DNA of 32,000 bases from Flavobacteriaceae bacterium. GTDB lineage: Bacteria; Bacteroidota; Bacteroidia; Flavobacteriales; Flavobacteriaceae. The notes under the pieces were generated by a model. It was not told the DNA's origin. It made no database searches and saw only the letters and a program-made list of their open reading frames with translations. Every line of letters starts with the position of its first letter. Within the stretch, counting starts at the first letter, position 1. The position numbers and the translations under genes were made by a program. This document shows, in pieces, positions 6,928 to 28,411 of the stretch. The DNA is taken from NCBI GenBank assembly GCA_965224465.1, contig OZ245049.1, positions 150,001 to 182,000 of the forward strand. Reading direction: 5' to 3'.

Positions 6928-7152
6928 AGGTTTTTCTAATTGTAGGTAACGATTAGCTAAGCACAGTGCGGTTTTAATATCTTCGAACCTCCCTGTGGCA
7001 ATTAGCCAAAGCATTTTATTTTGTTTTTACTTTTTAATCATAAAGCCAAATCAAAAGATTTACCTTCTGTGAGACTTTGTGTTGGCAGTCTTCGTTAAAA
7101 GTACTGAACTTCGACTTAGAAAACAAACCCGTATTGAGTTTAGGTGCTGTTA

Positions 7153-8337: not shown

Positions 8338-8540
8338 AGTTCTTCAAATGTATGGTAACGTCTAGTATAAGAAACGTAGGGCAATAAATAAGCACTATCG
8401 TTTCGGTTTATTACTTAGCTAAATATAAATATTTTGCTTTTATTTTTCTCCTAAATGCCAAATTTTATATTTAGCGGACTTTGTTAATACACACAGACCT
8501 TCGAGTTTAGCACAAACGCCCTATGTTTTTTATACATTGT

Positions 8541-10663
8541 GTGTGCCCAGCATGGGCATCTTTTAACTACGGAAAGGTAGTTAATTAATCTAGAGGGTGC
8601 AAGTCCCTTATGTGCAGGAGTAACGTTCTGAAACATTAGTAAGTCGCAAGGGTGAAAACCGTGAGGTTTTATCTGAAGATTATTTGCGATTGAGGAATGA
8701 GTAAATACCCTACAAAGCTCGGTACTGACGAACAGAAACCGTATACAGAGGTATAATTACTTGGGTAAGTAAACACATCATTGCAACGCCCAAAAGAATA
8801 CTAAAAGGGTAGTTATGTAGATACGGCAGTGATTGAGTGAACTGTAGCGAAGTGGAACTCAAGAACACCTCTAAAAAATAAAAAGGAGGTGAATAAAGAA
8901 GATGTCATTACCTGGGGAGGTCTCCAAAGCCAGGAGTTGGTTCTATGGAGAAGTCAGCAGACGTCATAGTACCTATGGGAAACGAGTTGAGGAAAGACCT
9001 CAGATGGTCTCACAAATAGGGAAGGACAGAACATTAAATTACGTTGAAATTCAATTAGGATGCCTAGCTAGCCTAGTTTTAAACCAACAGGAGTACCCGA
9101 ATTATTTAACCTATGATTGACAAAGTACTAGAAGCTACCAACCTTTTTAAAGCAGCACGTCAAGTGAAGCGAAATAAAGGAGCTAGCGGAGTTGATGGTA
9201 TGAACCATCCGAGAAGAAATATTCCTAAGAAAGACTATTTATCTTCGGATGCTCTATGTGACCGATTTAAATAAATAAAACCGTCACATAAAAGTAACGG
9301 AACTTTCAACTTATATAGTTGAAAACCGTTCAGACATACTAACAACGATCCGTAAGAATAGCTATGTTCCAAACTCAATCTTAGGAGTAAGCATTCCAAA
9401 AGGCAAGGGTAAAACCAGACTTTTAGGAATCCCAACAGTAGTAGATAGATGGCTACAGCAAGCGGTAAGCCAACAATTAATGGTTCAGTTCGAATTTGAT
9501 TTTGAGCCACTTAGTTTTGGGTTATTCACAGCTTTTTATTTTAGGGAGTTCATGAGCTCCCGTTGGTCGGTTTAGACCACAAAAGAACATTCAAAAAGCA
9601 GTACTACAAGCTCAACAGTATATCAATAATGGTTACCAAGATATTGTAGATATTGACCTTAAAGGGTTCTTTGATGAAGTGGACCATTGTATCCTACTAC
9701 AACTTATTTACCACAGGGTAAAATGTCCAACAACCATGCGTTTAATCCGAAAATGGCTTAGAGTTCCTATTTTAATAAATGGGAAACTTCAAAAGCGTAG
9801 AAAAGGAATCCCGCAAGGAAGCCCAATTAGTCCCTTACTATCTAACATAATGTTAGACGTCTTGGATAAAGAAATGAAAAGAATGGGTTTACGGTACGTC
9901 CGCTACGCAGATGATTTTAGCATTTACGCAAAGACCAAACGTGAGGCGAAACAAATAGGGAATACGTTGTTTGTCTTCTTAAAAGACAAATTAAAACTAC
10001 CTATAAATAAAGCCAAAAGTGGCATTCGTAGACCCGTAAACTTTGAGTTACTAGGACATGGCTTTGTGCCAGTCTACAAAAAGGGAGTAAAAGGACAATA
10101 TATACTAGTAGTAGCAAAGAAAAGTTGGGCAAAGTTTAAGCGTAACCTAAAGAGTATTACCAAGAAAACCAAACCAATGTCATTGTCGGAACGTTTAGAA
10201 CGGCTTAATCAAGTCTGCCGAGGCTGGATGAATAATTACCGTTTAACCAACATCTATGCAAAAGTTAAAAAGCTAGATGAGTGGATAAGAAATCGGTTGC
10301 GATATTGTATTTGGCACGATTGGAAAAAACTCGAACGAAAACGTAAAAACCTAATCAGATTAGGAATAGAGAATGGACAAGCATACGCTTGGAGTAGAAC
10401 CAGAATGGGAGGATGGGCAGTAGCCCAAAGTCCAATTTTAAAGACTACCATTACCAAATCTAGACTTGTACGAAAAGGGTATAAACCTTTGATAGATTAC
10501 ATTAATAATACGCAGACTTCAATTTTTTGAACCGCCGTATAGGTTCATGAGAATTAGAAGTATTTTTATACTTATAATTAGAGATGACCGAGCGAAGCTT
10601 TCGTACGTACGGTGGTGTGAGAGGCGCAGTGGCAACTATTCAGTTGTCACCCGTCTACTCGAT
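8541..10663 (+). mobile_element. Full-length bacterial group II intron (~2.1 kb) with a decayed reverse transcriptase/maturase ORF and no En domain
   Basis: The 5' end is GUGUGCCCAGCAUGGG (compare Ll.LtrB, GUGCGCCCAGAUAGGG). A domain V-like sequence, ACCGAGCGAAGCUUUCGUACGUACGGU, lies at ~10596-10622. Domain VI has a bulged A at 10657, 7 nt from a terminal ..GAU. The RT ORF sits in domain IV. Confidence 0.9.
9113..10530 (+). pseudogene. Group II intron RT/maturase, disrupted by at least two frameshifting insertions
   Basis: Three collinear pieces lie in three frames. Piece 1 is MIDKVLE..GASGVDGMN (9113-9205, frame 2). Piece 2 is VTELSTYIV..IPKGKGKTRLLGIPTVVDRWLQQA..FEP (9294-~9510, frame 3). 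Piece 3 is RFRPQKN..IPQGSPISPLLSN..RYADDFSIYA..RGWMNNYR (9556-10530, frame 1). Confidence 0.85.
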
Positions 10664-10801
10664 TAGGTGTCTGGCTTTTCTTTCCGCAAACTTGCTAGCG
10701 TTGGCAGAAGACATACTCTTTGACAAGTTTTGGATTTAGCGGTTGGTTTTTTAGCGACTTGGCAATGTGTATGGCTTTGTGCGTTGGCTAATTCATTTCA
10801 C

Positions 10802-13657
10802 TTAGTTTCCTGTTATTCCGTTTATAAATGTTTCCACAAATTCAACAATTTGTTTTAATATTTTATCTCCTAATTTTTTTCGTTTCAAAACAGACGGTTT
10901 TTCGCCTTCTATTAAATCCAACACTTCATCTCGCAAAGGTTCTCGTTCTGCGTAGAGATAGTTTTCTATTAGTTTCTGTGTTTTTTCTTCTGATAGATTT
11001 TCGTCTGTAGTTAGCTTTTTAAATGCTTTCTGCTGTTCCTCATTCCAAAATACTTCAAAGGCTTCTGGAATGTTGTCTGTATCTTCTATCGTTGGTAAAT
11101 TTTCTTCTATAAACTGCTGAATTAACTCTCGTTTACTTCTTAGGTTTACTTCTGTATTCAATAAGTTAGAAATTTCCTGTTCGGTTTTGGTTGCGTCTTT
11201 TTGCGTGTCCGATTTTAGTTTCATTAATAACTGAATAATGTAATTCACATTTATTTCGTCTCGGTGAATTAACTCCAATTCAAAATCTACATCTTCTAAA
11301 ATAGAAACTTTCTCAACAGCATTATCGCTTTTCACTTTTTGCCACAAATCCAAATACTTGCTTTTGTAATCTTCAAAAAGTTGTTCGGTCATTGCCAAAT
11401 CTTCCCATTTAAAATCTGAAAAAGAGTTTAGTATGTTCCGAATACGCATTAATTGACGAAACGCCTTAATAAATGCCAACTCATCATCTTCTGAAACTAA
11501 AGCGTTAACGCTGTTTACTGTTGGAGTAATCTTGATTAATTCGATAAAAGCTTCATTAAATTTGTTTACATAATCAACATAAGGTTCCATTATAATTACT
11601 TCAATGGCTTCTTTATTACTAAACAATGTTATGGCTTCATCTGTAGCCTTTTTTAAGTTTCTAAAAACCACAATATTTCCTTGCGATTTTTGTTCGTTTA
11701 GTATTCTATTGGTTCGTGAATAGGCTTGTATTAATCCGTGATATTTTAAGTTTTTATCTACATACAATGTATTTAGCGGTGGACTGTCAAAACCTGTTAA
11801 AAACATATTTACCACTAATAAAATATCAACTTTACGTTCTTTTACTTTCTTAGAAATATCATTGTAATAATTATAAAACGACTGACTGTCTTTGGTAGAA
11901 AACTTAGTGCCAAACATTTTGTTGTAATGTCCAATATATTCGTCTAATTTTTCTCTACTATGCACGTTCATTCCATACAAAGCAGGAGATTCTTCTACAA
12001 CCGAAACTTCTTCTGGAATAAATCCGTTGGCATCTGCATCCTCTTCATTGGCTACATAACTAAAAATGGTTGCAATTTTTAAGTTGTGTTTGCCTTCTTC
12101 TTTTTTCTTCTGAAATAAATCGTAGTATTTTATTAAGTTTTTAACACCACTTACACAAAACATTCCTGTAAACTCTTTTTGATGCGTTTTACGATTGTGA
12201 TTGGCAATAATATAATCGGTAATTTTATCCAAACGCTTTTCACTATCCATTAACTCTTTAGTGTCAATGTCTTCTACTTCAATGTCAATTTCGGTAGCAG
12301 ATTCTTTTCGTTTGTAACGACCTACATATTCTACCGAAAATTTGAGTACATTTTCATCTTTTATGGCATCTGTAATGACGTATTTATGCAAACACTCGCC
12401 AAATAGTTCTTTGGTAGTACGTTTTCCTAATTCATTTTTAACGGCATTGTCTTTAAATATAGGCGTTCCTGTAAAACCAAACATCTGGTTGTTATGGAAA
12501 AAGGCTTTTATTCTGTTGTGGGTTTCTCCAAATTGAGAACGGTGACACTCATCAAAAATAAATACAATTCGCTCATCTTGTAAAGCCTTCATTTTAGACA
12601 AATACTTGGCTTTGCTAATGGCTGTATTTAATTTTTGAATGGTGGTTACTATCAGTTTTGTATCGTCACCAAATTGTTTGACTAACGATTTTGTATTGTC
12701 TGTTCCATCAATACATCCTTTGCTAAAACTGTTAAACTCTTTGGTGGTTTGATAATCTAAATCTTTTCTATCTACCACAAAGACCACTTTTTTTACTTGT
12801 GGCATATTCATAATTATTTGGCTTGCCTTAAAAGAAGTTAAGGTTTTACCCGAACCTGTGGTATGCCAAATGTATGCGTTGTTGTTAGAGTTTTCTACTT
12901 GATTTACTAAGGTTTCTACTGCATAAAATTGATAGGGTCTAAGCACCATTAATATTTTGTGCGTTTCGTTTAGCACAATGTACTTGCTTATCATTTTTGA
13001 AATATGACAAGGCTCTAAAAAATCGCTTGTAAAACCGTTTATAATATTGGTTTGACGTTTATTGGCTGCATCTGTCCAAAAGAACGTTTGTTTAAAAGAT
13101 TGATTTCTGTTATTGGCATAATACTTTGTATTTACACCATTACTAATTATGAATATTTGAACATATTGAAACAAAGCCGATTTTGCACCAAACGAATGCC
13201 GTTGATACCGATTTATTTGGTTAAAGGCTTCTTTCATTTCCAAGCCTCTACGCTTTAGTTCTATTTGTACCAATGGCAAACCATTGATTAGTAAAGTAAC
13301 ATCATAACGGTTTTTGTAACTACCTTCCATAGTAACTTGGTGCGTTACTTGAAACTGGTTTTGACACCAAAAGTCTGTGTTTAGAAACTCAAAATAGAGG
13401 TTATCGCCATTATCTCGCTCAATATGCTGTTTGGCGCGTAGGGTTTTGGCTTTTTCAAAAACAGAACCTTTGCTGAGCATATTTAAAACACGTTCAAATT
13501 CTTTGTCTGAAAACGTAATGTTATTGTGCTTTTCTAATTGTGTTTTTAGATTGACTACTAAAGCGTTTTCATCTTTAATAAGCACTTTTTCGTACTTCAA
13601 TTGTTGCAATTGAGCCACTAATTGATTTTCTAATACTTGTTCTGGTTGTTTGCTCAT
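10802..13657 (-). CDS. hsdR: Type I restriction enzyme R subunit
   Basis: 951 aa. Helicase motifs are present: WHTTGSGKT (motif I) and FDECHRSQ (motif II). It is the last gene of the hsdM..hsdS..hsdR operon. Confidence 0.95.
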   Translation of the reverse strand: MSKQPEQVLENQLVAQLQQLKYEKVLIKDENALVVNLKTQLEKHNNITFSDKEFERVLNMLSKGSVFEKAKTLRAKQHIERDNGDNLYFEFLNTDFWCQNQFQVTHQVTMEGSYKNRYDVTLLINGLPLVQIELKRRGLEMKEAFNQINRYQRHSFGAKSALFQYVQIFIISNGVNTKYYANNRNQSFKQTFFWTDAANKRQTNIINGFTSDFLEPCHISKMISKYIVLNETHKILMVLRPYQFYAVETLVNQVENSNNNAYIWHTTGSGKTLTSFKASQIIMNMPQVKKVVFVVDRKDLDYQTTKEFNSFSKGCIDGTDNTKSLVKQFGDDTKLIVTTIQKLNTAISKAKYLSKMKALQDERIVFIFDECHRSQFGETHNRIKAFFHNNQMFGFTGTPIFKDNAVKNELGKRTTKELFGECLHKYVITDAIKDENVLKFSVEYVGRYKRKESATEIDIEVEDIDTKELMDSEKRLDKITDYIIANHNRKTHQKEFTGMFCVSGVKNLIKYYDLFQKKKEEGKHNLKIATIFSYVANEEDADANGFIPEEVSVVEESPALYGMNVHSREKLDEYIGHYNKMFGTKFSTKDSQSFYNYYNDISKKVKERKVDILLVVNMFLTGFDSPPLNTLYVDKNLKYHGLIQAYSRTNRILNEQKSQGNIVVFRNLKKATDEAITLFSNKEAIEVIIMEPYVDYVNKFNEAFIELIKITPTVNSVNALVSEDDELAFIKAFRQLMRIRNILNSFSDFKWEDLAMTEQLFEDYKSKYLDLWQKVKSDNAVEKVSILEDVDFELELIHRDEINVNYIIQLLMKLKSDTQKDATKTEQEISNLLNTEVNLRSKRELIQQFIEENLPTIEDTDNIPEAFEVFWNEEQQKAFKKLTTDENLSEEKTQKLIENYLYAEREPLRDEVLDLIEGEKPSVLKRKKLGDKILKQIVEFVETFINGITGN

Positions 13658-13660
13658 AGT

Positions 13661-13693
13661 TAATTACGAATTTGAAATTATGAATTACGAATT
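13661..13693. repeat. ATTACGAAT-type palindromic module a (TAATTACGAATTTGAAATTATGAATTACGAATT)
   Basis: It is an inverted repeat (32/33) of 15381-15413, and part of it is complementary to 14031-14060. It spans the stop codon of the four-helix-bundle gene. Confidence 0.9.
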
Positions 13694-14031
13694 GTTCGTT
13701 GGATACTTCCAATAATTTTCAATAATTCGTCTATATCTTTTAAAAGGCTTTCGCTTTGTTCTTTGCTTATATAATCTGTGTCTGTTAATAATCGTATCCA
13801 ATAATGGGTTTCTCTGGCTTCTTTGTATGCAATGGTCAATTTGGCAAAAAAATCTTTTTTACTTTGTCCGCCAATGGCTTCTTCAATATTTGCACCTATA
13901 GAAGTTCCCGAACGTAATAATTGTTTACTCAATACAAATTCCTTTTTTTCTGTGCACAAGTATTGATACACTTTTACAATTCTCACTGCAAAAGCATAAC
14001 TTTTTTCTTGTACTACATTCTCTTTTTTCAT
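13678..14031 (-). CDS. Four-helix-bundle protein (23S rRNA intervening-sequence protein / Avd-like family)
   Basis: 117 aa and all-helical. The motifs SGTSIGANIEEA and AYKEARETHYWIRLL are typical of this family as I recall it. Confidence 0.8.
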   Translation of the reverse strand: MKKENVVQEKSYAFAVRIVKVYQYLCTEKKEFVLSKQLLRSGTSIGANIEEAIGGQSKKDFFAKLTIAYKEARETHYWIRLLTDTDYISKEQSESLLKDIDELLKIIGSIQRTIRNS

Positions 14032-14060
14032 TCGTAATTCGTAATTAAAAATTCATAATT
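14031..14060. repeat. ATTACGAAT-type palindromic module b (TTCGTAATTCGTAATTAAAAATTCATAATT)
   Basis: It abuts the start codon of the four-helix-bundle gene. Its TTCGTAATTCGTAATT stretch pairs 15/16 with AATTATGAATTACGAA in module a. Confidence 0.85.
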
Positions 14061-14062
14061 GA

Positions 14063-15394
14063 TTACACAAACATTTTTTGCAACAAGCCTTTTTTGTAGG
14101 TTTTACTTTGTTCTATTTGCTGATTAACGGCATTTATTTTAGTATCTATTTTGCTTAGAAAATTGGCTATTTTGGTTTGTTCTTGGATTGAAGGGAGTGA
14201 TACTTTTATTTTTAACAAATCCTTAGTGTAAATTGCGGCAACACTTGTTGTTCCTGTTGCTAATTGTCTGAGTTTTTGCAAACCAACTATTGAATTAAAC
14301 CAATAATTCATATAAAAATTATTTTCAAATTTTATTCTCATTAAATTGGAGTTATAATAAGCCTTATCTAATTCATTTCTCCAAATAGAAACTTTTCCGA
14401 CTAATTCCAATGTGTTACGAGTATTAAAGAAAAGATCTCCATATTTCACTAAATCTTTTTCATCAATTACTTCAGAATTATTAATGTATTGTATCTTTTT
14501 TAAAGAAATATCTCCTCTACTTAAATTTCCCATTTTAATTAGAGGATTATTAGTTATAGTATCTGAGTTTGTATAATTACCTCCTAATTTAAAATTGATT
14601 AATAGCTCCCCCAACTTCTTCACTTCCCAATCAGGAAAGTCTTTTCCATTCTCATTTTTAAACCGAATGTAATTAGGAATTACGACTGATGAATTACGAG
14701 TTGTAGCCTCTATTAATTCGTCATTACCCAATTCGTAATTCGTAATTGATTCATTCGTAATTGATTTTTCGCCAACGGCAAAAATCTTTTGCATCATTCC
14801 TTTTTTGTAACTTTCTAATGCGTTTTTCTTGTCTTGTAGTTGGCTTATTTTTTTGTCTACAATGCTAAAGAAATGGGCTATTTTTTGTTGTTCGGGTAGG
14901 GTTGGGAATGGTAAAGGGAGTTTAAGTAAGCTTTCATTTGTAATATTCATTCTATCAAACCTTGCACCATAATTTGCTATAGATTTTAAATACTTATGCC
15001 AAAATGTAGTTTCAAAATATTGTTCGAAAAATGTGAGGTTTCCATTATTAAATCTTAAAACAGTGTAGAGAGGAGACATAACACCTTGTTCAAGATTGTT
15101 TCTTTTTAAAGGTCCAACAGGAGCATTGTTAGATATTCTTGGGTTGTAAATAAAATCGTCAATTTCAGCAATATAATAATTGTTTAAATTAACACTATTT
15201 GCTATTTTTTTATCAAAATAATCTTCTTGGTTTATAATACCTTTTTTTGCCGAATTGGTAAGAACTAAAGAAACTGAAAAATCAGTATTCTTTTTAGTTA
15301 TTCTTTGACCAATTTGTTCCAGTCTTTTCACTTCCCAAACCTCTTTAAATTCAGGAAATCGAACTTGTGGTATTTTGTTTAATTCGTAATTCAT
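14063..15394 (-). CDS. hsdS: Type I restriction enzyme S (specificity) subunit with an atypical ~37-aa insert after the central conserved region
   Basis: 443 aa with two target-recognition halves. Each half is followed by a conserved helix (LPEQQKIAHFF..KKGMMQKIF and LPSIQEQTKIANFL..KKGLLQKMF). Confidence 0.9.
   Translation of the reverse strand: MNYELNKIPQVRFPEFKEVWEVKRLEQIGQRITKKNTDFSVSLVLTNSAKKGIINQEDYFDKKIANSVNLNNYYIAEIDDFIYNPRISNNAPVGPLKRNNLEQGVMSPLYTVLRFNNGNLTFFEQYFETTFWHKYLKSIANYGARFDRMNITNESLLKLPLPFPTLPEQQKIAHFFSIVDKKISQLQDKKNALESYKKGMMQKIFAVGEKSITNESITNYELGNDELIEATTRNSSVVIPNYIRFKNENGKDFPDWEVKKLGELLINFKLGGNYTNSDTITNNPLIKMGNLSRGDISLKKIQYINNSEVIDEKDLVKYGDLFFNTRNTLELVGKVSIWRNELDKAYYNSNLMRIKFENNFYMNYWFNSIVGLQKLRQLATGTTSVAAIYTKDLLKIKVSLPSIQEQTKIANFLSKIDTKINAVNQQIEQSKTYKKGLLQKMFV
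14677..14763. repeat. ORF-less ATTACGAAT-type palindromic element inserted in frame within hsdS
   Basis: GAATTACGACTGATGAATTACGAG faces AATTCGTCATTACCCAATTCGTAATTCGTAATT..CATTCGTAATT across a 14-nt spacer. It is translated as KSITNESITNYELGNDELIEATTRNSSVVIPNY. Confidence 0.85.
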
Positions 15395-15413
15395 AATTTA
15401 AAATTCGTAATTA
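15381..15413. repeat. ATTACGAAT-type palindromic module e (inverted copy of module a)
   Basis: Its reverse complement, TAATTACGAATTTTAAATTATGAATTACGAATT, matches 13661-13693 at 32/33. It contains the hsdS start codon and its first codons (MNYEL). Confidence 0.9.
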
Positions 15414-15512
15414 GTTGCGTGAGGGATAGTAGTGGCATCCTTTTTTGTTTTTTCGCAAAAAAGATATAACGGATAGCCCGACCCTTGGGGCACGCCCAAA
15501 ATATTTGTTTGC

Positions 15513-16364
15513 TTATCCATCATTATTTTTTTTAGGGTTTACTTCTTTGTTGGTATTTTCTAAAAAGGTTTTAGCATTTATAGGGCTTACTACTTTTTTA
15601 CCAGTTCTTGCTTCTAGTTCTAACTTGGCAACCTTGGCAACATTGCCACCTTGTTTTGCTACTGTTTTGCTTTCTGTAAAGTTTTTTGGGTTTACTGCTT
15701 CCGATATATCTTTGGTAGATGCTTCTGCTAGCATATTTAATATGAGCTCGGTATTGGTCATATTATCTCTTAGATTTTCTTTTTTTAAGCCTTTTAAAAT
15801 TTTGTACTCTTTGGTGGTTTTACCTGCCCAACTTTGGGTTATTATATTGGTTAAAGTAGCAAATTGTACTCCTTCTTTTAAGCCTGTTTTTTTCCATTCA
15901 TCTGTCAGTTCCTTACGTATTTCAATACTTTTTAAACGTTGGTTTATCCAATTTTCAGAATACCCTAATTCTAAGTATTGTTTTAAAGCTCTATCAATAC
16001 TAAGTTCAGGGTCTTGTATTTCGTCTAGCCGTTCAGATGCTATTTGTGCCAACCAAAGCTTAAATGGCTCTGCTTTTGGTGATGGTATAGATTGTATGAG
16101 TCTAAATAGTTGTTTGGTATTAGCGACATCTGTTTTTCGCATTTTACCATCTTTAGCCAACATTTTCAAACCGTGACAATTCGTCACGGTTTCATTTCCT
16201 TCTGCTTTAAGTCTTTGCTTTAATTTTCTCCAATAGGCAGTTGGGTCTTTACTATCGGTTAATACCGTAATTACATCAACAATAGAAATAAACCAATCTT
16301 CTTTTTCTGTGTCCCAAATAGTCCTTACGCTACTGTCTTCAAATATTTTAATTTCGTTTTTCAT
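15513..16364 (-). CDS. Bro-N domain / DinD-like (DNA-damage-inducible protein D family) protein
   Basis: 283 aa. The N-terminus (IFEDSSVRTIWDTEKEDWFISIVDVITVL) is Bro-N-like. The C-terminal half resembles DinD (KILKGLKKENLRDNMTNTELILNMLAE). It lies between hsdM and hsdS. Confidence 0.7.
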   Translation of the reverse strand: MKNEIKIFEDSSVRTIWDTEKEDWFISIVDVITVLTDSKDPTAYWRKLKQRLKAEGNETVTNCHGLKMLAKDGKMRKTDVANTKQLFRLIQSIPSPKAEPFKLWLAQIASERLDEIQDPELSIDRALKQYLELGYSENWINQRLKSIEIRKELTDEWKKTGLKEGVQFATLTNIITQSWAGKTTKEYKILKGLKKENLRDNMTNTELILNMLAEASTKDISEAVNPKNFTESKTVAKQGGNVAKVAKLELEARTGKKVVSPINAKTFLENTNKEVNPKKNNDG

Positions 16365-16373
16365 CTTAAATAT

Positions 16374-17945
16374 TTAAAAAGGTGTGTCAATATTCAGTTC
16401 TTTACATAATGCAATCAATTCTTTATCGGTTTCTTGCATACTGGTTTCTAATGTTTTTAAGGTGTTAGAAACTTGGGCAATATCAACTGGTTCTTCCTCT
16501 TCAAAAGTGTTTACATATCTTGGGATGTTTAAGTTGTAATCGTTTTCGGCTATTTCTGTTAAAGCGGCAACATAACTGTATTTATCCTTTGCGGTTCTTT
16601 CTGTATACGTAGTAATAAGGCTTTCAATATTTTTTGTAGAAAGGGTATTCTGTGTTTTTACTTTTTCAAAATGTTTACTGCTATCAATAAACAATATATC
16701 TTCTGGGTTTTCTCTACATTTTTTAAATACTAAAATACAGGTTGGTATGCTGGTGCCATAAAACAGATTGGCAGGTAAACCAATAACGGCATCTAAATAA
16801 TTACGGTCTTCGATTAAGTATTTACGAATGTGTTGTTCTGCTCCACTTCTAAATAATGCTCCGTGAGGTAGTACAATTGCCATTGTTCCGTTTTCTGCCA
16901 AATGGTGAATCATATGTTGTACAAAGGCGTAATCGGCTTTAGACTTTGGTGCTAGTTTTCCGTATTGGCTAAAACGGTCATCACTTGTAAAAAGAGAATT
17001 TGCAGACCAATGTGCCGAAAATGGAGGATTGGCAACTATGGCTTCAAAACGTTCCTCTAAATGTTGTGGGTGTTCTAAAGTGTCTTCTTGTTTTATGTCG
17101 AATTTACGGTAATGAATATCGTGTAAAATCATATTCATTCTCGCCAAGTTGTAGGTAGTACGGTTTAGTTCTTGTCCGTAAAAATTGGTGACGCTTTCTA
17201 CTTCTTTGGCAACACGCAGTAGGAGAGAACCCGAACCACAAGTGGGGTCGTAAACCGATTTTAGTTTGGTTTTTCCTTGGGTTACCAATTTAGCCAACAC
17301 AATACTTACTTCTTGTGGTGTGTAAAATTCACCTGCTTTTTTTCCTGCTCCACTTGCAAACTGCCCGATTAAGTATTCGTAAGCATCTCCTAAAACATCA
17401 ATTTCGGTATTTTCAATTTTGAAGTCTATCTTGTCTAAATGAGAAAGTACTTTTGCAATAATTTCGTTTCTTGTTTCTGGAGATTTCCCTAATTTGGTAG
17501 AGTTCAAATCCATATCTTCAAACAGATTGTCAAAATCTTCTTCACTTTCCGTTCCCATTGTACTGAGTTGGATATTGGTCAGAATCTTTTGTAAATCTTC
17601 TAAAATGAAGTTAGAAATACCTTCTACATCAGAATTTCCTCTTTTAGCAAGTTGGCTAAACAATTCGCTAGGTTTTAAGAAGTAACCTAGTTTCTCAACT
17701 GCTTCTTCTTTTATGGCTTTAATGTATTCTTGTCCGTTTTCGGAATCTTCTTTTATGTTGGTAAAAAGGATTCCGTCTGGTTTTAGAATTGTATTGGCAT
17801 ACAAGTTCATTTTTTCAGATAGATATTTGTAGAAAATAAAACCCAAAATGTAATCTCGAAACTCGTCCGCATTCATTTTTCCTCTAAGCGTATTGGCTAT
17901 ATTCCACAGTTGTTGTTCGAGTTGTTTTTTTTGGTCTTCACTCAT
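16374..17945 (-). CDS. hsdM: Type I restriction enzyme M subunit (N6-adenine DNA methyltransferase)
   Basis: 523 aa with the AdoMet motif YDPTCGSGSLLL and the catalytic motif IVANPPFS. Confidence 0.95.
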   Translation of the reverse strand: MSEDQKKQLEQQLWNIANTLRGKMNADEFRDYILGFIFYKYLSEKMNLYANTILKPDGILFTNIKEDSENGQEYIKAIKEEAVEKLGYFLKPSELFSQLAKRGNSDVEGISNFILEDLQKILTNIQLSTMGTESEEDFDNLFEDMDLNSTKLGKSPETRNEIIAKVLSHLDKIDFKIENTEIDVLGDAYEYLIGQFASGAGKKAGEFYTPQEVSIVLAKLVTQGKTKLKSVYDPTCGSGSLLLRVAKEVESVTNFYGQELNRTTYNLARMNMILHDIHYRKFDIKQEDTLEHPQHLEERFEAIVANPPFSAHWSANSLFTSDDRFSQYGKLAPKSKADYAFVQHMIHHLAENGTMAIVLPHGALFRSGAEQHIRKYLIEDRNYLDAVIGLPANLFYGTSIPTCILVFKKCRENPEDILFIDSSKHFEKVKTQNTLSTKNIESLITTYTERTAKDKYSYVAALTEIAENDYNLNIPRYVNTFEEEEPVDIAQVSNTLKTLETSMQETDKELIALCKELNIDTPF

Positions 17946-18105
17946 TTATTTTAGTCTATTTTTTTAAGTTCACAAAGTACATATTTTTTGGCTAACGGAA
18001 TGTAGAGCGTTGGCAAGAAATTACTCTTTTGATTTTTTGTGTTTTGGCTTTGAGCGTTGGCAAAAACCAAATGTGCAATTTGTGTGGTTGGCTTTTTTTT
18101 AGCTT

Positions 18106-18306
18106 GCACCTAACACTCATATATCATCAATAAACTTCCAAAACTTGACGTTATTTCCGTTATATCTATAATAGTTTCGGGGTATGTGTTGTTTTTTTGT
18201 TAAATATACTCAAAATTTTTTAAATTTTCAAGGGGTCCAACCATTTTTTATTGTTATTTCGATGGTCTTGATGTACATCTCTGAGGTTTTTGGAAAAGCA
18301 TAGCTT
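18106..18306 (+). repeat. R2 copy 1 (~200-bp conserved non-coding module, proximal variant A)
   Basis: Aligns by eye with 19849-20045, 21505-21711 and 28200-28389. It lies 160 nt upstream of the hsdM start on the minus strand. Confidence 0.9.
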
Positions 18307-18309
18307 AAC

Positions 18310-18856: not shown

Positions 18857-19762
18857 TTAAAAAGAATTAGAATTTTCTTTAGAAACATTTTGATGAAAGT
18901 CCTTCAATAATTGACAAACTAGTGTTTGGTTTTTTTCTTTAAACCTTCTTATCCAAAATGAATAAACAAAAAATATTCTATGACTTAATTTACTTCCTTG
19001 GTCATTTTTAGATGAGTAATTTTCATCTGACAAAATATCTTTAACCTTTTCGCTAGCAAAGTCACTAATCGTATTGTCTATTTCTTCATATACATCCCAA
19101 TAGTTATCTGAATCTATATCTTGCGAATACATTTTATTAGTTAAATCGTTTTTATATCTTATATGTTCATTATTTTCTACTTCAGTATAAGCAATTATTA
19201 AGGCTTTTACTATTGATGATACACCTGAGTCTTCATATAAAGTGTTGTTTTTAAATAATAAATACAATACTTGTTTTTCTCTGGGAGTAATTAGTTTTTT
19301 TAAGTTCTCTGGACTCCTGTCTACACTGTTCCAGATATAATTAACAACAGAAAATTTATCTAGGATAGCATCTAATTTTCCAAGATTTTTTTTATTGATA
19401 AATTGTCCACTGCTCCATAAACTTGTCATTATATTTATATTCTCAAGATCAAGAGATTTAAAAGAAACTTTTATAAAGTTTTCAGTATTTATAATTGGAG
19501 TAGATTCATCAATAAAACTAATTAGAGTCTCTGCATTAATTTGACTTTCTAAAGTTGAAATTTCCGTTTTGTTATTTTTAATTTTATCGTTTGAATTGTC
19601 TAAATCTCCAGATAAAACATTAATAATAGAATCTTTAGCTGTTAATTGTCTTTGTAAATTATTAATTTGAAGTTGTTGTTCTTCAGTTTTATTATTACAA
19701 GAATATAAAAGAAATAAAGAAACTATTAAAAATGGTATTGGGGTGCGTTTTTTGAAATTCAT
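18857..19762 (-). CDS. Hypothetical lipoprotein
   Basis: 301 aa. The N-terminus has a signal peptide plus lipobox-like sequence (FLIVSLFLLYSC). I recognise no domain. Confidence 0.65.
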   Translation of the reverse strand: MNFKKRTPIPFLIVSLFLLYSCNNKTEEQQLQINNLQRQLTAKDSIINVLSGDLDNSNDKIKNNKTEISTLESQINAETLISFIDESTPIINTENFIKVSFKSLDLENINIMTSLWSSGQFINKKNLGKLDAILDKFSVVNYIWNSVDRSPENLKKLITPREKQVLYLLFKNNTLYEDSGVSSIVKALIIAYTEVENNEHIRYKNDLTNKMYSQDIDSDNYWDVYEEIDNTISDFASEKVKDILSDENYSSKNDQGSKLSHRIFFVYSFWIRRFKEKNQTLVCQLLKDFHQNVSKENSNSF

Positions 19763-19848
19763 ATTTTGGTAACGGATTATATTTTTTTATGCAAGAATAA
19801 ATCTCCTATGTTTTAAATTTATAATTTTTCGTTAATCACATTGTTTAC

Positions 19849-20045
19849 AACACCCGTATATCGACTATAGAACTCTTAGAGTAGTTGTTATTTCTAACAT
19901 AGCTAGAGTAGAATGAGTGATTATTTGTTTTTTTTGTTAAAAGTATTCAAATTTTTTAAATTTTAAAGCGGTCCAACGATTTTTTTATTGTTTATTTCGA
20001 TGGTCTTCGTGTAAATCTCTGTGGGTTTTGGAGAAGCATGGCTTA
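19849..20045 (+). repeat. R2 copy 2 (proximal variant B)
   Basis: Starts AACACCCGTATATC, 86 nt upstream of the lipoprotein start codon. Its distal ~110 bp are identical to R2 copy 3. Confidence 0.9.
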
Positions 20046-20059
20046 GATAAGAAAAAAAT

Positions 20060-20290
20060 CAATTTTAAAGACTACCAAACACAAATCTAGACTTGTACGC
20101 AAAGGATACAAACAGTTGATAGAAACCAATAATAATACGCAAACTTCAATTTTTTGAACCGCCGTATAGGTTCATGAGAATTAGAAGTGTTTTTATACTT
20201 ATAATTAGAAATGACCGAGCGAAGCTCTCGAATGTACGGTGGTGTGAGAGGCGCAGTGGCAACTATTCAGTTGTCACCCGTCTACTTGAT
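20060..20290 (+). mobile_element. 5'-truncated group II intron fragment (end of the RT ORF, then domains V-VI)
   Basis: Matches 10433-10663 of the full-length intron, including GACCGAGCGAAGCTCTCGAATGTACGGT and the domain VI hairpin GTGGCAACTATTCAGTTGTCAC. It ends ..CTACTTGAT. Confidence 0.9.
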
Positions 20291-20838
20291 TAGGCATCTG
20301 GCTTTTTATTTATTTCTTTTTTCAAACTTGTCATTGTCTGTTTTGGAGATTTTTCAATATATCTATTTGCTTTTTCTTTGATTTCAGCGTCTAAAGATTT
20401 TAAATATCTGATAGCATTCTCAATAGAAAAATCGATTCCTTGCTTTTCTTTGAAGTTACTGGGTAAGTCTGTCCATAATACAGCTGAGATATTATTCTCA
20501 TTAGCCCATTGTTCAATGCTTTCTATTAATACATCTGAAAGGTGTGAATTCTTTTCTTTATCTTTCAAATTAATAAATCCAATTCTCTTATTTATTGTTC
20601 CTTCTCGTTGTCTTAAATTCTCTATAGATTTTTCAATATCTGAGCCATCTGAAATCGCCCAATATGTTTCAATTAATGTTCCATGTTTTTCATCAATTAC
20701 TAATGTTAGTCGACCATCCTTTGATATGCGAGAGAATTCGATAGGAAGTTTAACTCCACCTTTATTCCAATCTGAAGCTATTTTTAATTCCCTTTTGTCC
20801 CAAATTAGACTACCCCAAGCTAAAATTGTAATTTTCAT
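20290..20838 (-). CDS. ChaC / gamma-glutamylcyclotransferase-like fold protein (putative)
   Basis: 182 aa. The N-terminal ILAWGSLIWD resembles the (Y/W)GSL(M/I)W motif of ChaC/GGCT. GRLTLVIDEKHGTLIETYWA and LRQREG resemble the ChaC core and its catalytic Glu region. This is from memory only. Confidence 0.5.
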   Translation of the reverse strand: MKITILAWGSLIWDKRELKIASDWNKGGVKLPIEFSRISKDGRLTLVIDEKHGTLIETYWAISDGSDIEKSIENLRQREGTINKRIGFINLKDKEKNSHLSDVLIESIEQWANENNISAVLWTDLPSNFKEKQGIDFSIENAIRYLKSLDAEIKEKANRYIEKSPKQTMTSLKKEINKKPDA

Positions 20839-20841
20839 ATT

Positions 20842-21486
20842 TCAATAGTTTATGTGAAGTCCAGCTATATTATTGAATTTACGAATAAAGGCTTCTTGTA
20901 AATCCTTAAGTAAAACTAATTCTTTGTTGTAGCATTCCAAATATTCTTTTATTCGGCTCTCAAGTATATTCCTATCTATTACATTATATGCATTTTTATA
21001 TTCATAAAATTCCGAATTATTATCTACTCTTATTATCCAATTTAATTTCGTAGAAGCTTCGTGTAATAATCCGCATCTTACATTTTCATAAAAACCTACT
21101 GCTAATCCATTTGTACTTGTGAATACTGTATTAAAAGGTTTTCTATTTTCGAAAAAAGAGATAAATTTATCTTTGCTTCTATTATATTCATATTGTTGCA
21201 ATTGATTATCTCTACAATATCTATAAATTCCTCCTGTATAAGTTGATTCCAAAAACTCAATCAATGAACAAAGAATTGCTGTGATTGAAAAACCCTCTCC
21301 ATTCAATTTATCATTATCCTTAATGTCTTTAATTGCTTTAAAATATCTCGTTTGTAACCTCTCATCAAAGAATTCATATGCCTCATTCCAAAGACTAGTA
21401 TCATTAGGTTTGGCTCGTAATTTATTTCTTAGGTTTTTCCAATCCAATACTGTTTTATATCCTGCTATTTGTATTGAATCATTCAT
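20842..21486 (-). CDS. Hypothetical protein with no recognisable domain; first gene of a two-gene operon
   Basis: 214-aa ORF. Its stop lies 3 nt from the start codon of the downstream ChaC-like gene. R2 copy 3 begins 18 nt upstream of its ATG. Confidence 0.6.
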   Translation of the reverse strand: MNDSIQIAGYKTVLDWKNLRNKLRAKPNDTSLWNEAYEFFDERLQTRYFKAIKDIKDNDKLNGEGFSITAILCSLIEFLESTYTGGIYRYCRDNQLQQYEYNRSKDKFISFFENRKPFNTVFTSTNGLAVGFYENVRCGLLHEASTKLNWIIRVDNNSEFYEYKNAYNVIDRNILESRIKEYLECYNKELVLLKDLQEAFIRKFNNIAGLHINY

Positions 21487-21504
21487 CTTTTTCTGCTTGT
21501 GCCT

Positions 21505-21711
21505 AACACCCGTATATCATCAATAAACTTCCAAAACTTGACGTTATTTCCGTTATATCTATAATAGTTTCGGGGTATGTGTTGTTTTTTTGTTAAAAGT
21601 ATTCAAATTTTTTAAATTTTAAAGCGGTCCAACGATTTTTTTATTGTTTATTTCGATGGTCTTCGTGTAAATCTCTGTGGGTTTTGGAGAAGCATGGCTT
21701 AGATAAGAAAA
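21505..21711 (+). repeat. R2 copy 3 (proximal variant A)
   Basis: Its proximal part is near-identical to R2 copy 1 and its distal part is identical to R2 copy 2. Confidence 0.9.
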
Positions 21712-21725
21712 AAATCAATTTTAAA

Positions 21726-21945
21726 GACTACCAAACACAAATGTAGACTTGTACGAAAAGGATACAAACGGTTGATAGAAACCAATAATAATACGCAAAC
21801 TTCAATTTTTTGAACCGCCGTATAGGTTCATGAGAATTAGAAGTGTTTTTATACTTATAATTAGAAATGACCGAGCGTAGCTCTCGAATGTACGGTGGTG
21901 TGAGAGGCGTACTCTGGCTAAGATAGTTGGAGCCGTCTATTCGAT
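21726..21945 (+). mobile_element. 5'-truncated group II intron fragment with a divergent distal domain VI
   Basis: It has the same 5' junction as the 20060 copy (GATAAGAAAAAAATCAATTTTAAAGAC). Domain V is conserved. The distal stem of domain VI is replaced (TACTCTGGCTAAGATAGTTGGAG) while the base of the stem and the bulged A are kept. Confidence 0.85.
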
Positions 21946-21973
21946 TATGTCCTTTTTTTATTTTTCACGTTGA

Positions 21974-22816
21974 TTAAATACATAATTTTATCAGTTTACA
22001 ATCCATTAATTTTGCTGGATTGTTAGGGTCTTTTATCTGCTTATTTTCAATACTAAAACCACTTTCTTTTATTCCTTCAAGTTTAGTTCTACTTTCTTTA
22101 GGAAAACTATTGTATTTATCTGTTGGAATTATACCAACCAATTCAAATTCTTTGTCGGTTGGTTTGTGTAAGTAATTGAATACTTTTCTAGGGTTTTCAA
22201 TTTGCCACATTTCCCTAATTCTCAAGTTTGTTATTCCTAAAGGGTCAACTTGATTAACTCTTCCTAATTCTTTAGTATTTGCGAAAACAACATCTGGAAT
22301 AGTTTCTATGCCGTCTGAAATAGTCGTTTTTATTCTTTGGTATGTTTCGTGTTTGGCTGCGTACGAACTACCATAAACCATCCATAATGATTTCAGACTC
22401 GTATCTGTAGTGTGTCCAACACAGTAAATTAAATCTTTAACTGTCCAATCTTCACATTCCTTGCATTCTTTCGTAATCATAGGACTTGTATGTCTCAAAT
22501 CAGTTTTTGGATAACTGCTATTTAAAGCCAAACTTGAATTTGCACTTTGAGTTTTCTTAACTTCAATAGCATCTCCTCCTTTTATCATAATATCAGGTGG
22601 ATTATTTTGGGAACCTAACCAAGAAAATTCTTGATTATAAGTCTGCATTTTTTTTGTTTCGTTTGTTAATCCCAATGTTCCAGCAAACGCATCCTTGATA
22701 TAATTTTCAAGTGAGTCTCCCATTCCATTTGCTCGATTCCTGCCCGAATACATTACACGTATTTCAAAATTCTTTTGATTTACGATATTATAAATTGCTT
22801 CTAAAATATTTGTCAT
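21974..22816 (-). CDS. Type II restriction endonuclease, NgoPII-like (predicted GGCC)
   Basis: 280 aa. Its start overlaps the stop of the upstream HaeIII-like methyltransferase gene by 4 nt (ATGA). [22 protein letters not shown] matches my recollection of the NgoPII family. Confidence 0.65.
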
Positions 22817-24198
22817 AGGGCAACTGCTTCTTTAGTTTTTTGAGTTTGTTTTGCTTTTTTCGTTGTGATTTCGTTTGCCTTTATTTGTTGCATTATACTA
22901 TTTGCAAGAAATTTAGCCAAATTAACAGGAACTGCATTTCCAATCATTTTGTAACCTGCTGCAATTTTTTTGTAATGAAAAATAAAGTCATTAGGAAATG
23001 TTTGAATTCTTGCACATTCTCGAACACTTAAGCGTCTATATAAATGTTCTTTTCCGGGAACGAAAACACGAACATTTTTTTCAATAAATTTCATTTTTGG
23101 TGCTTGTGGATGAATAGGAGCGTGTCGTCCACCTGCTTGGATAGTATAAGATTGTTCATCCCAATCTCTAACACGGTTTCTTGACATAAACATTGAAGAA
23201 AAACTTCCAATCATATATTCGTGATTAGGAAGAATACAATTTTCGCCATTTGTATTATTATACTCTAAAGCAGGTAAAACACCTTCTTTTAAATCCGAAA
23301 TAGCTGTTTCAAGAGTAACTTTTGGAAATGTTTCAGTTGGAAATTGGTACTTAAAATTTAAGTCTTTTCTAATTCCAATAAAAAATATTCTTTTTCGGTC
23401 TTGAGGTACATTGTAATCAGATGCGTTAAGCATTTGAAAAGAAAGTTCGTAACCAACTCCTGCATTTCTGAAAAGTTCTTTTATTCCTTCAAGAGCTTCT
23501 GTATGTTTTGAAATTAGCATTCCACTCACATTTTCGGCTAAAAAGAATTTTGGTTGTTTAGCTTCTAAAATTCGTATAAAATCATAAAACAATTGACCTC
23601 TTTTGTCTTTAATTCCTCTTGCAGAACCAGCTTCACTCCAACTTTGACAAGGAGGACCTCCAATTATTCCGTCACATTCAGGAACTTCATCTGCAGGGAT
23701 ATTTACAAGACTTCTTTTGTCAAGAATTGTATTAGGGTGATTTTTTTCATAAGTTTCCCAAATTTCTTTGTCATATTCATTTGCCCAAACAACATTGAAT
23801 CCTGCTTTTTGGAAACCTAAATCAAGTCCGCCTGCCCCTGCGAAAAAAGATGCAATTTTCATATTTAATTGTGTTTGAAGTGATTTATTAAGTATTCTAC
23901 GATATTCTGCTTTTTCTTCTGCAACTTGTAAAAGTTGTTTTGTACAGTTCGTTTCATAAATTTGTTTTCCGATTTGATCAGTAACATATTCATTCTGTAA
24001 TTCTTTAAGATTGAGTTTGAAAATTTCCGCAAGTTTAGGTAAGCGTTTTTTATCAAAATCTCGTTTCCCATTCTCGATTTTACTCAAATTTGCAGAATCT
24101 AAACTTAGTTTAGCTGCAAGTTGAGTCAAAGTCAATTTGTTTTTTGTTCGTAAAAGTCGGATGTATTCTCCAAATGTGGTATTCATAAGACTTGTCAT
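22813..24198 (-). CDS. DNA (cytosine-5) methyltransferase, HaeIII/NgoPII-like, with an N-terminal XRE-type HTH domain
   Basis: C5-MTase motifs are present: [12 protein letters not shown] (I), GGPPCQSWS (IV), LAENV (VI), [10 protein letters not shown] (VIII) and GNAVPV (X). Long stretches resemble M.HaeIII as recalled. The first ~70 aa ([25 protein letters not shown]) form an HTH. Confidence 0.9.
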
Positions 24199-24388
24199 TT
24201 TTTGACAAATTTACAAAATTTATTGGATTATTTTAATTTAGTAGTGATTTTTTTTAATTGGGCATGACGTTGTTGTGTATTATTAGTTGCGTGTTTCAAG
24301 TACTAAAGTTAGTAAATAAATCACAGATAGAAATTCCACAAGGACTTTCGTAAATTGGCTAAAACCAACAATTAATTATACACGGTGT

Positions 24389-24812
24389 GTGTGCCCAGCA
24401 TGGGCGTCTTTTAACTATGGAAAGGTAGTTAATTATTCTAGAGGGTGCAGTCCCTTATGTACAGGAGTAACGTTCTGAACTGCGTAGCTCTCAGGAACAC
24501 CTCTAAAAAAATAAAAGGGAGTGAATAACTGCGAAGCTATCATGAACACCTCTAAAAAAATAAAAGGGAGTGAATAAAATCCAATTTTAAAGACTACCAT
24601 TACCAAATCTAGACTTGTACGAAAAGGGTATAAACCTTTGATAGATTACATTAATAATACACAAACTTCAATTTTTTGAACCGCCGTATAGGTTCATGAG
24701 AATTAGAAGTGTTTTTATACTTATAATTAGAAATGACCGAGCGTAGCTCTCGTACGTACGGTGGTGTGAGAGGCGCAGTGGCAACTATTCAGTTGTCACC
24801 CGTCTACTCGAT
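24389..24812 (+). mobile_element. ORF-less mini group II intron (internal deletion derivative, ~424 nt)
   Basis: Its first ~90 nt match the 5' end of the full-length intron. Two tandem 49-nt units follow that match 8842-8890. The last ~232 nt match the 3' end of the full-length intron (domains V and VI intact). Confidence 0.85.
24480..24577 (+). repeat. Tandem duplication (2 x 49 nt) inside the mini intron
   Basis: CTGCGTAGCTCTCAGGAACACCTCTAAAAAAATAAAAGGGAGTGAATAA is followed by CTGCGAAGCTATCATGAACACCTCTAAAAAAATAAAAGGGAGTGAATAA. Confidence 0.9.
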
Positions 24813-24824
24813 TATATGCAGGGC

Positions 24825-25147
24825 TTACGCACTTTTTAATTCCTCTAAGAGCCAATTCAGTTTTTGTCTAGCCACACTTATCAAATCAACATAAGTGCGA
24901 TAGAGGACATCTCCACGTTCGTTATGTGAACTGATTATTCCTTTAACTTTACCTCCCAAAAGTATAATTTCTATTTTCTGACTATGAAAATATACATTTA
25001 ATTCATCACGGTATTTCAATGCTTGTGCTTCTGTATCTCTATTTAAAGTAAAACTTGGTCTTTTAAACTCTATTAAAATTAAAGACCTTGTAATATTTCT
25101 ACCAAAGAGAATGTCCGGTCTATCATCAGGTTTATCTCCTTTATAAG
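24825..25147 (-). pseudogene. C-terminal fragment of the IS-disrupted GHKL-ATPase/DUF4263 gene (PD-(D/E)xK nuclease core)
   Basis: Reading on from 26729 after removing the IS and one TSD copy gives ..EKVIKKTYKGDKPDDRPDILFGRNITRSLILIEFKRPSFTL..ELKSA*. The D..ExK pattern resembles DUF4263. Confidence 0.8.
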
Positions 25148-28160: not shown

Positions 28161-28199
28161 ATTTTTTTGAAATACTAATGTTTTTTTTGCCTTGCATAT

Positions 28200-28389
28200 A
28201 ACACCCGTATATCGACTATAGAACTCTTAGAGTAGCTGTTATTTCTAACATAGCTAGAGTAGAATGAGTGATTATTTGTTTTTTTGTTAAAAGTATTCAA
28301 ATTTCTTAAATTTTCAAGTTGCCCAACGATTTTTTTATTATTATTTCGATGGTCTTGGTGTACATCTCTGTGGTTTTGGAGAAGCATAG
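28200..28389 (+). repeat. R2 copy 4 (proximal variant B)
   Basis: Starts AACACCCGTATATCGACTATAG, 39 nt upstream of the GHKL gene's ATG. The third copy of the 64-bp core follows at 28401-28464. Confidence 0.9.
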
Positions 28390-28411
28390 TTTTATATTAA
28401 TACAATCCAAA

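Follow-up and report, generated by a model that had tools for sequence, protein, structure and literature searches.

Several anti-phage effectors act by depleting a metabolite, among them the NAD+-degrading TIR and SIR2 proteins, dCTP deaminase, dGTPase and the ATP-degrading effector of Detocs. A different type of small-molecule chemistry is carried out by BtrG, an enzyme of the gamma-glutamylcyclotransferase (GGCT) fold, which removes a gamma-glutamyl protecting group in butirosin biosynthesis, is encoded in a biosynthetic cluster and acts with a carrier protein. Here, we describe two adjacent genes, termed A and B, in a stretch of 32,000 nt from a Flavobacteriaceae bacterium (GenBank assembly GCA_965224465.1, contig OZ245049.1, positions 150,001 to 182,000 of the forward strand), which is referred to as the window in the following. 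B is predicted to encode a GGCT-fold enzyme, and A belongs to a protein family that recurs beside such enzymes or fused to them. We tentatively favour the explanation that the pair is a mobile conflict module and the split form of a widespread module composed of an A domain and a GGCT-fold enzyme, which we regard as plausible but far from certain.

Proteins A and B and their tie to GGCT-fold enzymes

An earlier note on this DNA, made from the sequence alone, had described two tightly coupled genes with a gap of 3 nt, and this is indeed the arrangement found, since the TGA of A is followed by AAT and the ATG of B, which suggests translational coupling. The word-indexed protein search retrieved 250 relatives of A and at least 926 clusters of B homologues at 90% identity, and an exhaustive profile search extended the A family to 1745 clusters (50% identity, E ≤ 1e-3); for 310 of them the E value was 1e-30 or lower. 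The models obtained with AlphaFold 2 (AF2) reached a mean predicted local distance difference test score (pLDDT) of 95.1 for A and of 96.1 for B, both being built on family alignments. From the numbers of homologues and the confidence of the models we conclude that A and B are genuine genes.

The earlier note had further read the second protein as ChaC/GGCT-like, which holds by fold, motif register and analogy, but not by curated profiles, none of which detects B. The only full-length matches of the B model in Foldseek were the two chains of human ChaC2 (6ky1_A and 6ky1_B) with template modelling (TM) scores of 0.53-0.55. The top of the Foldseek list was taken by Ubl, PB1 and beta-grasp matches, which we rejected as partial only, because they cover about 80 columns at TM scores of 0.18-0.23. 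For the comparison with ChaC we used the E. coli protein from the annotated K-12 genome and then a small ChaC profile plus human ChaC2, the sequence of which was reconstructed from the PDB alignment. In hhalign, the B profile matched ChaC with probabilities of 24%, 48% and 59%, the last value being obtained with an alignment of 203 B sequences (E 9e-5). The register was constant throughout and placed WGSL on YGSL (YGSLMW in ChaC), GRLTLV on GRMLAL and R78-E79 on R126-E127, where E127 of E. coli ChaC falls into the same column as the catalytic E83 of human ChaC2. W8, G9 and E79 are conserved in 100% of the 203 B sequences, L11 in 99%, S10 in 98% and R78 in 96%. An assignment of B as an AIG2/GGACT-type protein was rejected at an hhalign probability below 1%, and B was therefore placed nearer to ChaC. 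B gave nothing significant in PHROGs and no PDB sequence match by single sequence or profile, while a single JGI record labels a B homologue 'ChaC'. Based on fold, profile register and conservation, B is predicted with fairly high probability to be an active enzyme of the GGCT fold with ChaC as its nearest relative.

Protein A could not be assigned to any family in the earlier note, and our searches agree with this. No match was obtained in Pfam, NCBIfam, PADLOC or PHROGs, nor among the PDB sequences by single sequence, family profile or a profile of 105 A sequences (the PDB profile searches of A and B also used profiles of 56 and 59 sequences), and the best Foldseek match in the PDB had an E value of 1.4. 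Against BFVD, Foldseek returned only two uncharacterised phage proteins at TM scores of about 0.4, which carry no functional information. The model is mainly helical with a three-stranded sheet. Across 105-143 diverse members, W16, R43, R47, G63, G65, E77, F111 and R137 are invariant, and C73, C138, H142, E143, T146 and K203 are conserved in at least 93%. Judged from this pattern, the pairs C73/E77 and C138/H142, each spaced i, i+4, could form a Cys/His/Glu metal site, and R43, R47 and R137 could bind carboxylates. The best-conserved motif of A, VRCGLLHEA, includes R137-x4-H142, which is present and conserved with the R-x4-H spacing of HEPN proteins and could thus be a HEPN-type motif; A had no HEPN match in Pfam, and the HEPN-MNT entry 7bxo appeared in Foldseek at an E value of 9.3 with TM scores of 0.19-0.28.

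The connection between A and the GGCT fold comes mainly from domain fusions. The 148 new best representatives that were examined for the A family include 25 with a length of at least 280 aa. In 24 of these 25, A is fused to an AIG2/GGACT domain, 20 times in the order A-GGCT and four times in the order GGCT-A. All nine fusions tested with Pfam matched both AIG2_2 and GGACT, with AIG2_2 above the gathering score in each, and fusions of A to other domains were not seen. In the AIG2-type partner domains of A, the catalytic Glu is conserved in 100% and the YGSN loop is conserved as well. Separate genes in the order AIG2-then-A also occur, such as in Rhodobacter (L088), where they overlap by 4 nt, and like layouts were found at four further loci (L097, L114, L124 and L138), and at L120 the gene downstream of A is B-like but divergent. 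Fusions in both orders and adjacent genes, as read from the sequences, thus link A solidly to GGCT-fold enzymes, and the usual enzyme partner of A elsewhere is of the AIG2/GGACT type, often fused to it. Since B stands next to A just as the AIG2-type enzymes do, the assignment of B to the GGCT fold receives independent support.

Pairing and genomic surroundings of the two families

The earlier note had expected homologues of the pair to be co-localised and to lie near defence genes. The former is true of close homologues, which always occur together, but does not apply universally. In close relatives of A (about 53% identity or more), B always follows, at gaps of -4 to +21 nt, and A-B adjacency was found at about 10 distinct sites beyond the window (L001, L004, L005/L172, L056, L066, L074, L080, L092 and L198). 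At least 16 pairs of A and B clusters occur on contigs of matching size, and the paired clade consists mostly of Bacteroidota plus a Scalindua metagenome-assembled genome (MAG). Scanning one genome per species (185,579 in total) with the B profile yielded about 360 loci from very diverse bacterial phyla as well as Bathyarchaeia and Thermoplasmata, the best 80 of which were used to draw the genomic contexts of B. B was also detected on 23 viral contigs, none of which carries A, and a pattern scan of viral contigs found no A. Some B homologues lie on IMG/VR contigs that are labelled as giant-virus MAGs (GVMAG; L183, L184 and L187-L189).

Both families were found among defence genes in many phyla, albeit by a crude statistic. 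B stands tightly beside genes of a defence type, the two either overlapping or being separated by no more than about 110 nt. In four loci the neighbour is an Eco57I/MmeI-type (PglX-like) methylase. Other neighbours are BrxL, an AAA_21/AAA_23 ATPase, SNF2 and UvrD helicases and a Schlafen AlbA_2 protein, as well as a trypsin-like protease, a PrimPol-exonuclease, a kinase-AAA protein, HipA and PIN. We matched 177 PADLOC families (E ≤ 1e-8) within 2.5 kb of B and 61 at a distance of 6.5-10 kb, in a comparison of equal gene numbers that counts families rather than genes and is therefore a crude measure of enrichment. The far set still contains CBASS cyclases, Dsr1, DrmD, viperin and ThsA, which indicates that the islands are large. 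B is a promiscuous gene beside many different defence genes. DUF4238 was considered as a recurrent partner and rejected, because jackhmmer found none across the 80 genomic B loci. In Acidobacteriota, B adjoins an enoyl-CoA hydratase or is fused with it.

Fusions of B were found at four loci (L034 8240-10543, L046 4191-5588, L071 9836-11131 and L051 9995-11323). The module joined to B in them is a region similar to restriction endonucleases, a helical domain, a domain resembling HEAGH metalloproteases or a crotonase/enoyl-CoA hydratase. In L034, B is fused to an N-terminal region of 585 aa with a restriction-endonuclease-like motif that was read by eye; the C-terminal helical domain of 285 aa and the HEAGH domain were likewise called by eye. 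The hydratase call is the sole one among these modules with Pfam support, which was obtained on the homologous neighbour in L043. The extra domains of two B fusions had no match in the PDB.

The neighbours of A include a KAP NTPase, HEPN_AbiU2, phospholipase D-type (PLD) and BrxL proteins, a ThsB-like TIR protein, and PIN and GNAT proteins. One GGCT-A fusion (P0378) adjoins an AAA_15/AAA_21 ATPase, an OLD-like TOPRIM protein and a UvrD helicase, with AbiEi and QueC-like genes in the same island, and from the Pfam matches we take the domains of these neighbours to correspond to GajA and GajB of Gabija. Another fusion (P0480) lies beside an HNH-helicase, SNase and cpYpsA, a third (P0373) was found beside a Dam-like methylase in a Mu-like prophage, where it fills an accessory ('moron') slot, and the AIG2-then-A genes of L088 are cargo of a Tn7-like element with a HEPN protein beside them. 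On plasmids, where PGAP labels the copies of A and B 'hypothetical protein' only, the genes nearby encode either a PLD protein together with a helicase and a methylase, or the exclusion protein Lit together with a QueC-like cluster. Taken together, the residence of both families on plasmids and in defence islands, in the cargo of transposons and in accessory slots of prophages is strongly supported.

A few further observations concern individual loci. In L001, an extra S-adenosylmethionine synthetase gene (11371-12573) is located just downstream of the A-B pair, and the same island also has an SduA_C (Shedu) gene and a group II intron reverse transcriptase. The surroundings of an A homologue on the Agrobacterium plasmid pAoF64/95 (L200) and of a GGCT-A fusion in a metagenome island (L203/L204) have a common set of neighbours, in which a protein of about 190 aa of no known family and a QueC-like protein are accompanied by an XRE/helix-turn-helix (HTH) regulator and then a small protein. 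The regulator carries a Peptidase_M78 domain in L203, and the set may represent a recurring system.

The island of the window and the mobility of the pair

The A-B pair of the window sits between a type I and a type II restriction-modification (R-M) system, in an island with a G+C content of 29-33% that is bordered by nitrate-reductase genes (36-40% G+C) on one side and by an M16 peptidase gene on the other. The earlier note had placed the pair between a lipoprotein gene and a type II R-M system, which agrees with the lipoprotein-like open reading frame (ORF) on one flank and the NgoPII-type endonuclease and C5 methylase on the other (Table 1). It had also spoken of an island full of R-M and Shedu-like genes, of which the R-M part stands, while no SduA_C match was found among the 17 larger window ORFs scanned with Pfam. 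Other content of the island includes a DDE transposase, a HATPase_c_3 protein and a mini-intron devoid of ORFs.

Evidence for the movement of the pair comes from a metagenome contig (L198) that is 96% identical to the window, but only along positions 21507..20290 of the latter (220-1434 in L198). This common stretch comprises the A-B pair and the 21-nt leader directly 5' of A, and the flanks are unrelated, from which we conclude that the pair moves as one cassette. On the basis of this sequence comparison, the leader is one edge of the mobile unit. A further match of 66 nt with 83% identity connects L198 1503-1568 with window positions 6998-7061 in the start region of the SH3-protein gene, which hints at intergenic elements common to related islands.

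The claim of the earlier note that a repeat module lies 5' of A and an intron fragment at the stop of B was confirmed. The module, termed R, has a length of about 210 nt and is present in four copies in the window, each of which is located immediately 5' of one of four minus-strand units, namely those of HsdM, of the lipoprotein-like protein, of A-B and of the HATPase_c_3 protein. Possible roles of R are that of a promoter or leader common to these units, or that of a recombination site. The position of R modules before separate gene units gives the island the look of a cassette array, and in a related contig (L092) the proximal part of the module of about 80 nt is kept upstream of its own A gene. 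Two copies of the last ~250 nt of a group II intron are joined to R modules, one overlapping the last five codons and the stop of B and the other lying upstream of the R module of A. All group II intron copies are antisense to the cassette genes, the reverse-transcriptase ORF of the full copy (283 aa) appears truncated, and the sequence TTAGGnnTCTGGCTTTT directly follows both the full intron and the intron-end copy that overlaps the stop of B. An Rfam scan of positions 19700-22000 detected no RNA family in the flanks of the pair. The Bacteroidota -7 promoter motif TAnnTTTG was considered and rejected, because its 38 matches in the window, compared to 52 expected, show no enrichment, and therefore a copy 250 nt upstream of A proves nothing.

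Two genes interrupt the type I R-M operon; one encodes a bAvd-like 23S rRNA intervening-sequence protein, the other a protein with a Bro-N domain. The Flavo-1 RNA at 15409-15487 shows that the genome behind the window is Flavobacteriia-like.

Table 1 Positions of genes A and B, their motifs and the surrounding features in the window.
Feature	Position in the window	Strand	Remarks
Gene A	21486..20842	minus	214 aa, ATG start, TGA stop at 20844-20842 (ORF listing)
Gene B	20838..20290	minus	182 aa, ATG start (ORF listing)
A-B spacer	20839..20841	minus	AAT, 3 nt between the TGA of A and the ATG of B
WGSLIW codons of B	20800..20817	minus	B residues 8-13; corresponds to the substrate-binding loop YGSL in enzymes of the GGCT/ChaC type
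R78-E79-G80 codons of B	20599..20607	minus	within LRQREG (B residues 75-80); E79 is the predicted catalytic glutamate
R137-C-G-L-L-H142 codons of A	21061..21078	minus	within the motif VRCGLLHEA
Leader, 21 nt	21487..21507	minus	directly 5' of A
R module	18095-18307		5' of a minus-strand unit
R module	19832-20045		5' of a minus-strand unit
R module	21488..21700	not assigned	5' side of A
R module	28192-28394		5' of a minus-strand unit
Group II intron, full copy	~8500-10677	plus
Reverse-transcriptase ORF of the intron	9679-10530		283 aa
Intron-end copy (last ~250 nt)	20054..20304	plus	overlaps the end of B
Intron-end copy (last ~250 nt)	21710..21960	plus	antisense to the genes, upstream of the R module
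Mini-intron	24355-24826		ORF-less, both ends present
Island	~5.7-28.5 kb		low G+C
Imm26-family protein	7153-8337	minus	polymorphic-toxin immunity family; same island
Bacterial SH3-domain protein	6112-7014	minus	same island
Type I R-M system	10802-17945		same island as A-B
Intervening-sequence protein ORF	13678-14031	minus	inside the R-M operon
Bro-N protein ORF	15513-16364	minus	inside the R-M operon
Flavo-1 RNA	15409-15487	opposite to the genes interrupting the R-M operon
Lipoprotein-like ORF	19762..18857		without Pfam match; named after its N-terminal signal sequence
NgoPII-type endonuclease and C5 methylase	21974-24198		neighbour of A-B

Proposed role, rival explanations and known systems

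In the proposed mechanism, B would cleave a gamma-glutamyl amide bond with cyclisation of the glutamyl moiety to 5-oxoproline, and A, with its invariant R43, R47, R137 and E77 and its conserved Cys/His cluster, would bind the substrate or a trigger and control the enzyme. The module would thereby destroy or unmask a gamma-glutamyl-linked small molecule in the course of a genetic conflict, most likely in anti-phage defence or abortive infection. Glutathione is one candidate substrate, which is however unlikely to be the universal one, since many of the phyla that host B are, to our knowledge, not known to make it. A more far-reaching version, which we consider possible but doubtful, is that the A-GGCT module, whether split or fused, constitutes a new prokaryotic immune or abortive-infection system with gamma-glutamyl cyclotransfer as effector chemistry, by which a gamma-glutamyl-linked metabolite would be destroyed or unmasked upon infection. 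In this version A would represent a new fold for sensing or regulation, and B-type enzymes would be effectors reusable in restriction, BREX-like, helicase and ATPase systems.

Several results weigh against the explanation as a conflict module. Regarding the identity of B, the matches to ChaC2 have Foldseek probabilities of 0.84-0.87 at E values of only 0.07-0.13, so that support from the fold is moderate, the hhalign probability against ChaC was always below 60%, no match to ChaC PF04752, GGACT PF06094, AIG2_2 PF13772 or NCBIfam was obtained at E ≤ 1, and B has no significant alignment with the AIG2-type partners of A. PADLOC-DB v2.0.0 contains no family that matches A or B at E ≤ 1, and the near/far comparison of defence families is crude, as stated above. 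With respect to context, a few loci look neutral (L004, L173 and L090), of which L004 and L173 have no defence neighbours, the pair of L004 being located between genes for isocitrate dehydrogenase and an M20 peptidase. Furthermore, A is present at only 5 of the 80 best genomic B loci, and a GGCT-like neighbour was found at 6 of 72 non-redundant metagenomic A loci. The frequent solitary occurrence of A and B is a poor fit to an obligate sensor-effector pair and weakens this component of the explanation, but it can be reconciled with enzymes that are self-sufficient and enter modular combinations.

The same solitary occurrence bears on the possibility that A-B is a toxin-antitoxin or addiction module that stabilises the mobile island instead of sensing phage, with A acting as a HEPN-like RNase or B depleting an essential gamma-glutamyl metabolite, and with the respective other protein as the neutralising partner. 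Such a module would be in keeping with the small size and translational coupling of the genes, with their movement as a discrete cassette, with their occurrence among transposases, integrases, PIN toxin-antitoxin genes and plasmids, and with the R137-x4-H142 motif of A. Yet each gene is far commoner alone than paired, and obligate co-occurrence is thus not what we find, which argues against a classical toxin-antitoxin pair because a toxin would need its antidote. Moreover, single-chain A-GGCT fusions are common in both orders, and no HEPN or toxin-antitoxin profile or fold matches A, so that we judge this explanation improbable. An ordinary accessory role in metabolism or detoxification, in which B would serve the salvage or breakdown of gamma-glutamyl peptides or amines or of a gamma-glutamyl compound from the environment, A would provide a second step or a binding subunit and the genes would merely hitch-hike, appears rather unlikely to us. 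It can draw on the known GGCT, ChaC, GGACT and BtrG enzymes, which are metabolic, on L004 and L173 as loci without defence neighbours, and on the enoyl-CoA hydratase beside or fused to the B of Acidobacteriota. Against it speak the very patchy spread across bacterial and archaeal phyla, the tight and repeated adjacency to restriction/BREX-like methylases, BrxL, the Gabija-like set, helicases and toxin-antitoxin genes, and the occurrence as Tn7-like cargo and within an accessory slot of a prophage, and no transporter or pathway genes are conserved around A or B.

The adjacency to nucleic-acid-targeting systems could also mean that B, with A where present, is an accessory enzyme of these neighbours and no stand-alone system. 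It might strip an amino-acid-type modification from invading DNA or protein to enable restriction or BREX, or undo a modification that a phage counter-defence has introduced. In three loci B overlaps the stop of a PglX/MmeI-like methylase by 1-4 nt and in a fourth it follows after 30 nt, B comes after BrxL and after SNF2 and UvrD helicases, and the L034 fusion carries the restriction-endonuclease-like region called by eye. However, the partners are too varied for one specific role, A-B forms a self-contained cassette that has a leader of its own both in the window and in L198, and we know of no gamma-glutamyl-type DNA modification, which we also count against this explanation; altogether we regard it as quite improbable. 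Least of all do we expect an enzymatic immunity set against an interbacterial toxin, similar to the orphan-immunity arrays of Bacteroidota, in which B would reverse or destroy the product of the toxin. Such a role would be in line with the Imm26-family and SH3 proteins in the same island and with the cassette-like structure of the latter with its repeated intergenic modules, but neither a toxin gene nor a recombinase typical of such arrays was found in the window, and the homologues in many phyla and in archaea lie beside phage-defence genes and not beside secretion-system genes.

If the explanation as a mobile conflict module is true, the cleavage of gamma-glutamyl bonds would be a new chemistry for effectors of defence islands and would point to a gamma-glutamyl metabolite that is important during infection. 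A and B represent two large families that are missed by Pfam, NCBIfam, PHROGs and PADLOC, and the domain-fusion ('Rosetta-stone') link between A and cyclotransferases makes them directly testable. Even if the pair turned out to be metabolic or similar to toxin-antitoxin modules, a new fold that is specifically coupled to cyclotransferases would constitute unexplained biology.

The statement of the earlier note that no system of this composition has been described is in agreement with the lack of matches in PADLOC and with the literature that we searched, in which full-text searching gave no paper that ties ChaC, GGCT or AIG2 enzymes to phage defence; one match to 'AIG2' was a mere accession number and was discarded. 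An archaeal island with a GGCT gene, an ADP-ribosylglycohydrolase and a glutamine amidotransferase has been reported (PMC5126054), but its architecture is different from that of A-B. We rate the module as a defence-island enzyme set of a predicted chemistry without precedent there and with a new partner fold.

Among the known families, B is most similar to ChaC (E. coli ChaC, human ChaC2, PDB 6KY1/6K95, PF04752), with which it shares the size (182 aa compared to 184 aa in ChaC2), the N-terminal aromatic-G-S-L-I/M-W loop, a later GR-x-x-L strand and an invariant Arg-Glu at the column of the catalytic Glu. It differs by an identity to ChaC2 of about 9-12% in the Foldseek alignments, by the lack of a Pfam match at E ≤ 1, by invariant motifs of its own (LPIEFSR, W111 and W122-T123) and by its location in defence islands instead of housekeeping loci. 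The hosts of B also include phyla that are not known to make glutathione, so that the substrate probably differs as well. The AIG2/GGACT enzymes (PF06094, PF13772) resemble B in their place beside A or fused to it and have a YGSN loop and a catalytic Glu, but they form another branch of the superfamily, and as separate genes they lie upstream of A while B lies downstream. With the metabolite-depleting effectors of anti-phage systems the module would share, by analogy, the proposed logic, namely that defence islands join an enzyme cleaving a small molecule to changing partner or sensor genes; no homology to them was detected, and the predicted reaction is the cyclotransfer of a gamma-glutamyl amide. 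Although A-B lacks the biosynthetic-cluster and carrier-protein genes that accompany BtrG, this enzyme provides a precedent for the GGCT fold being used to unmask a gamma-glutamyl compound rather than to recycle glutathione.

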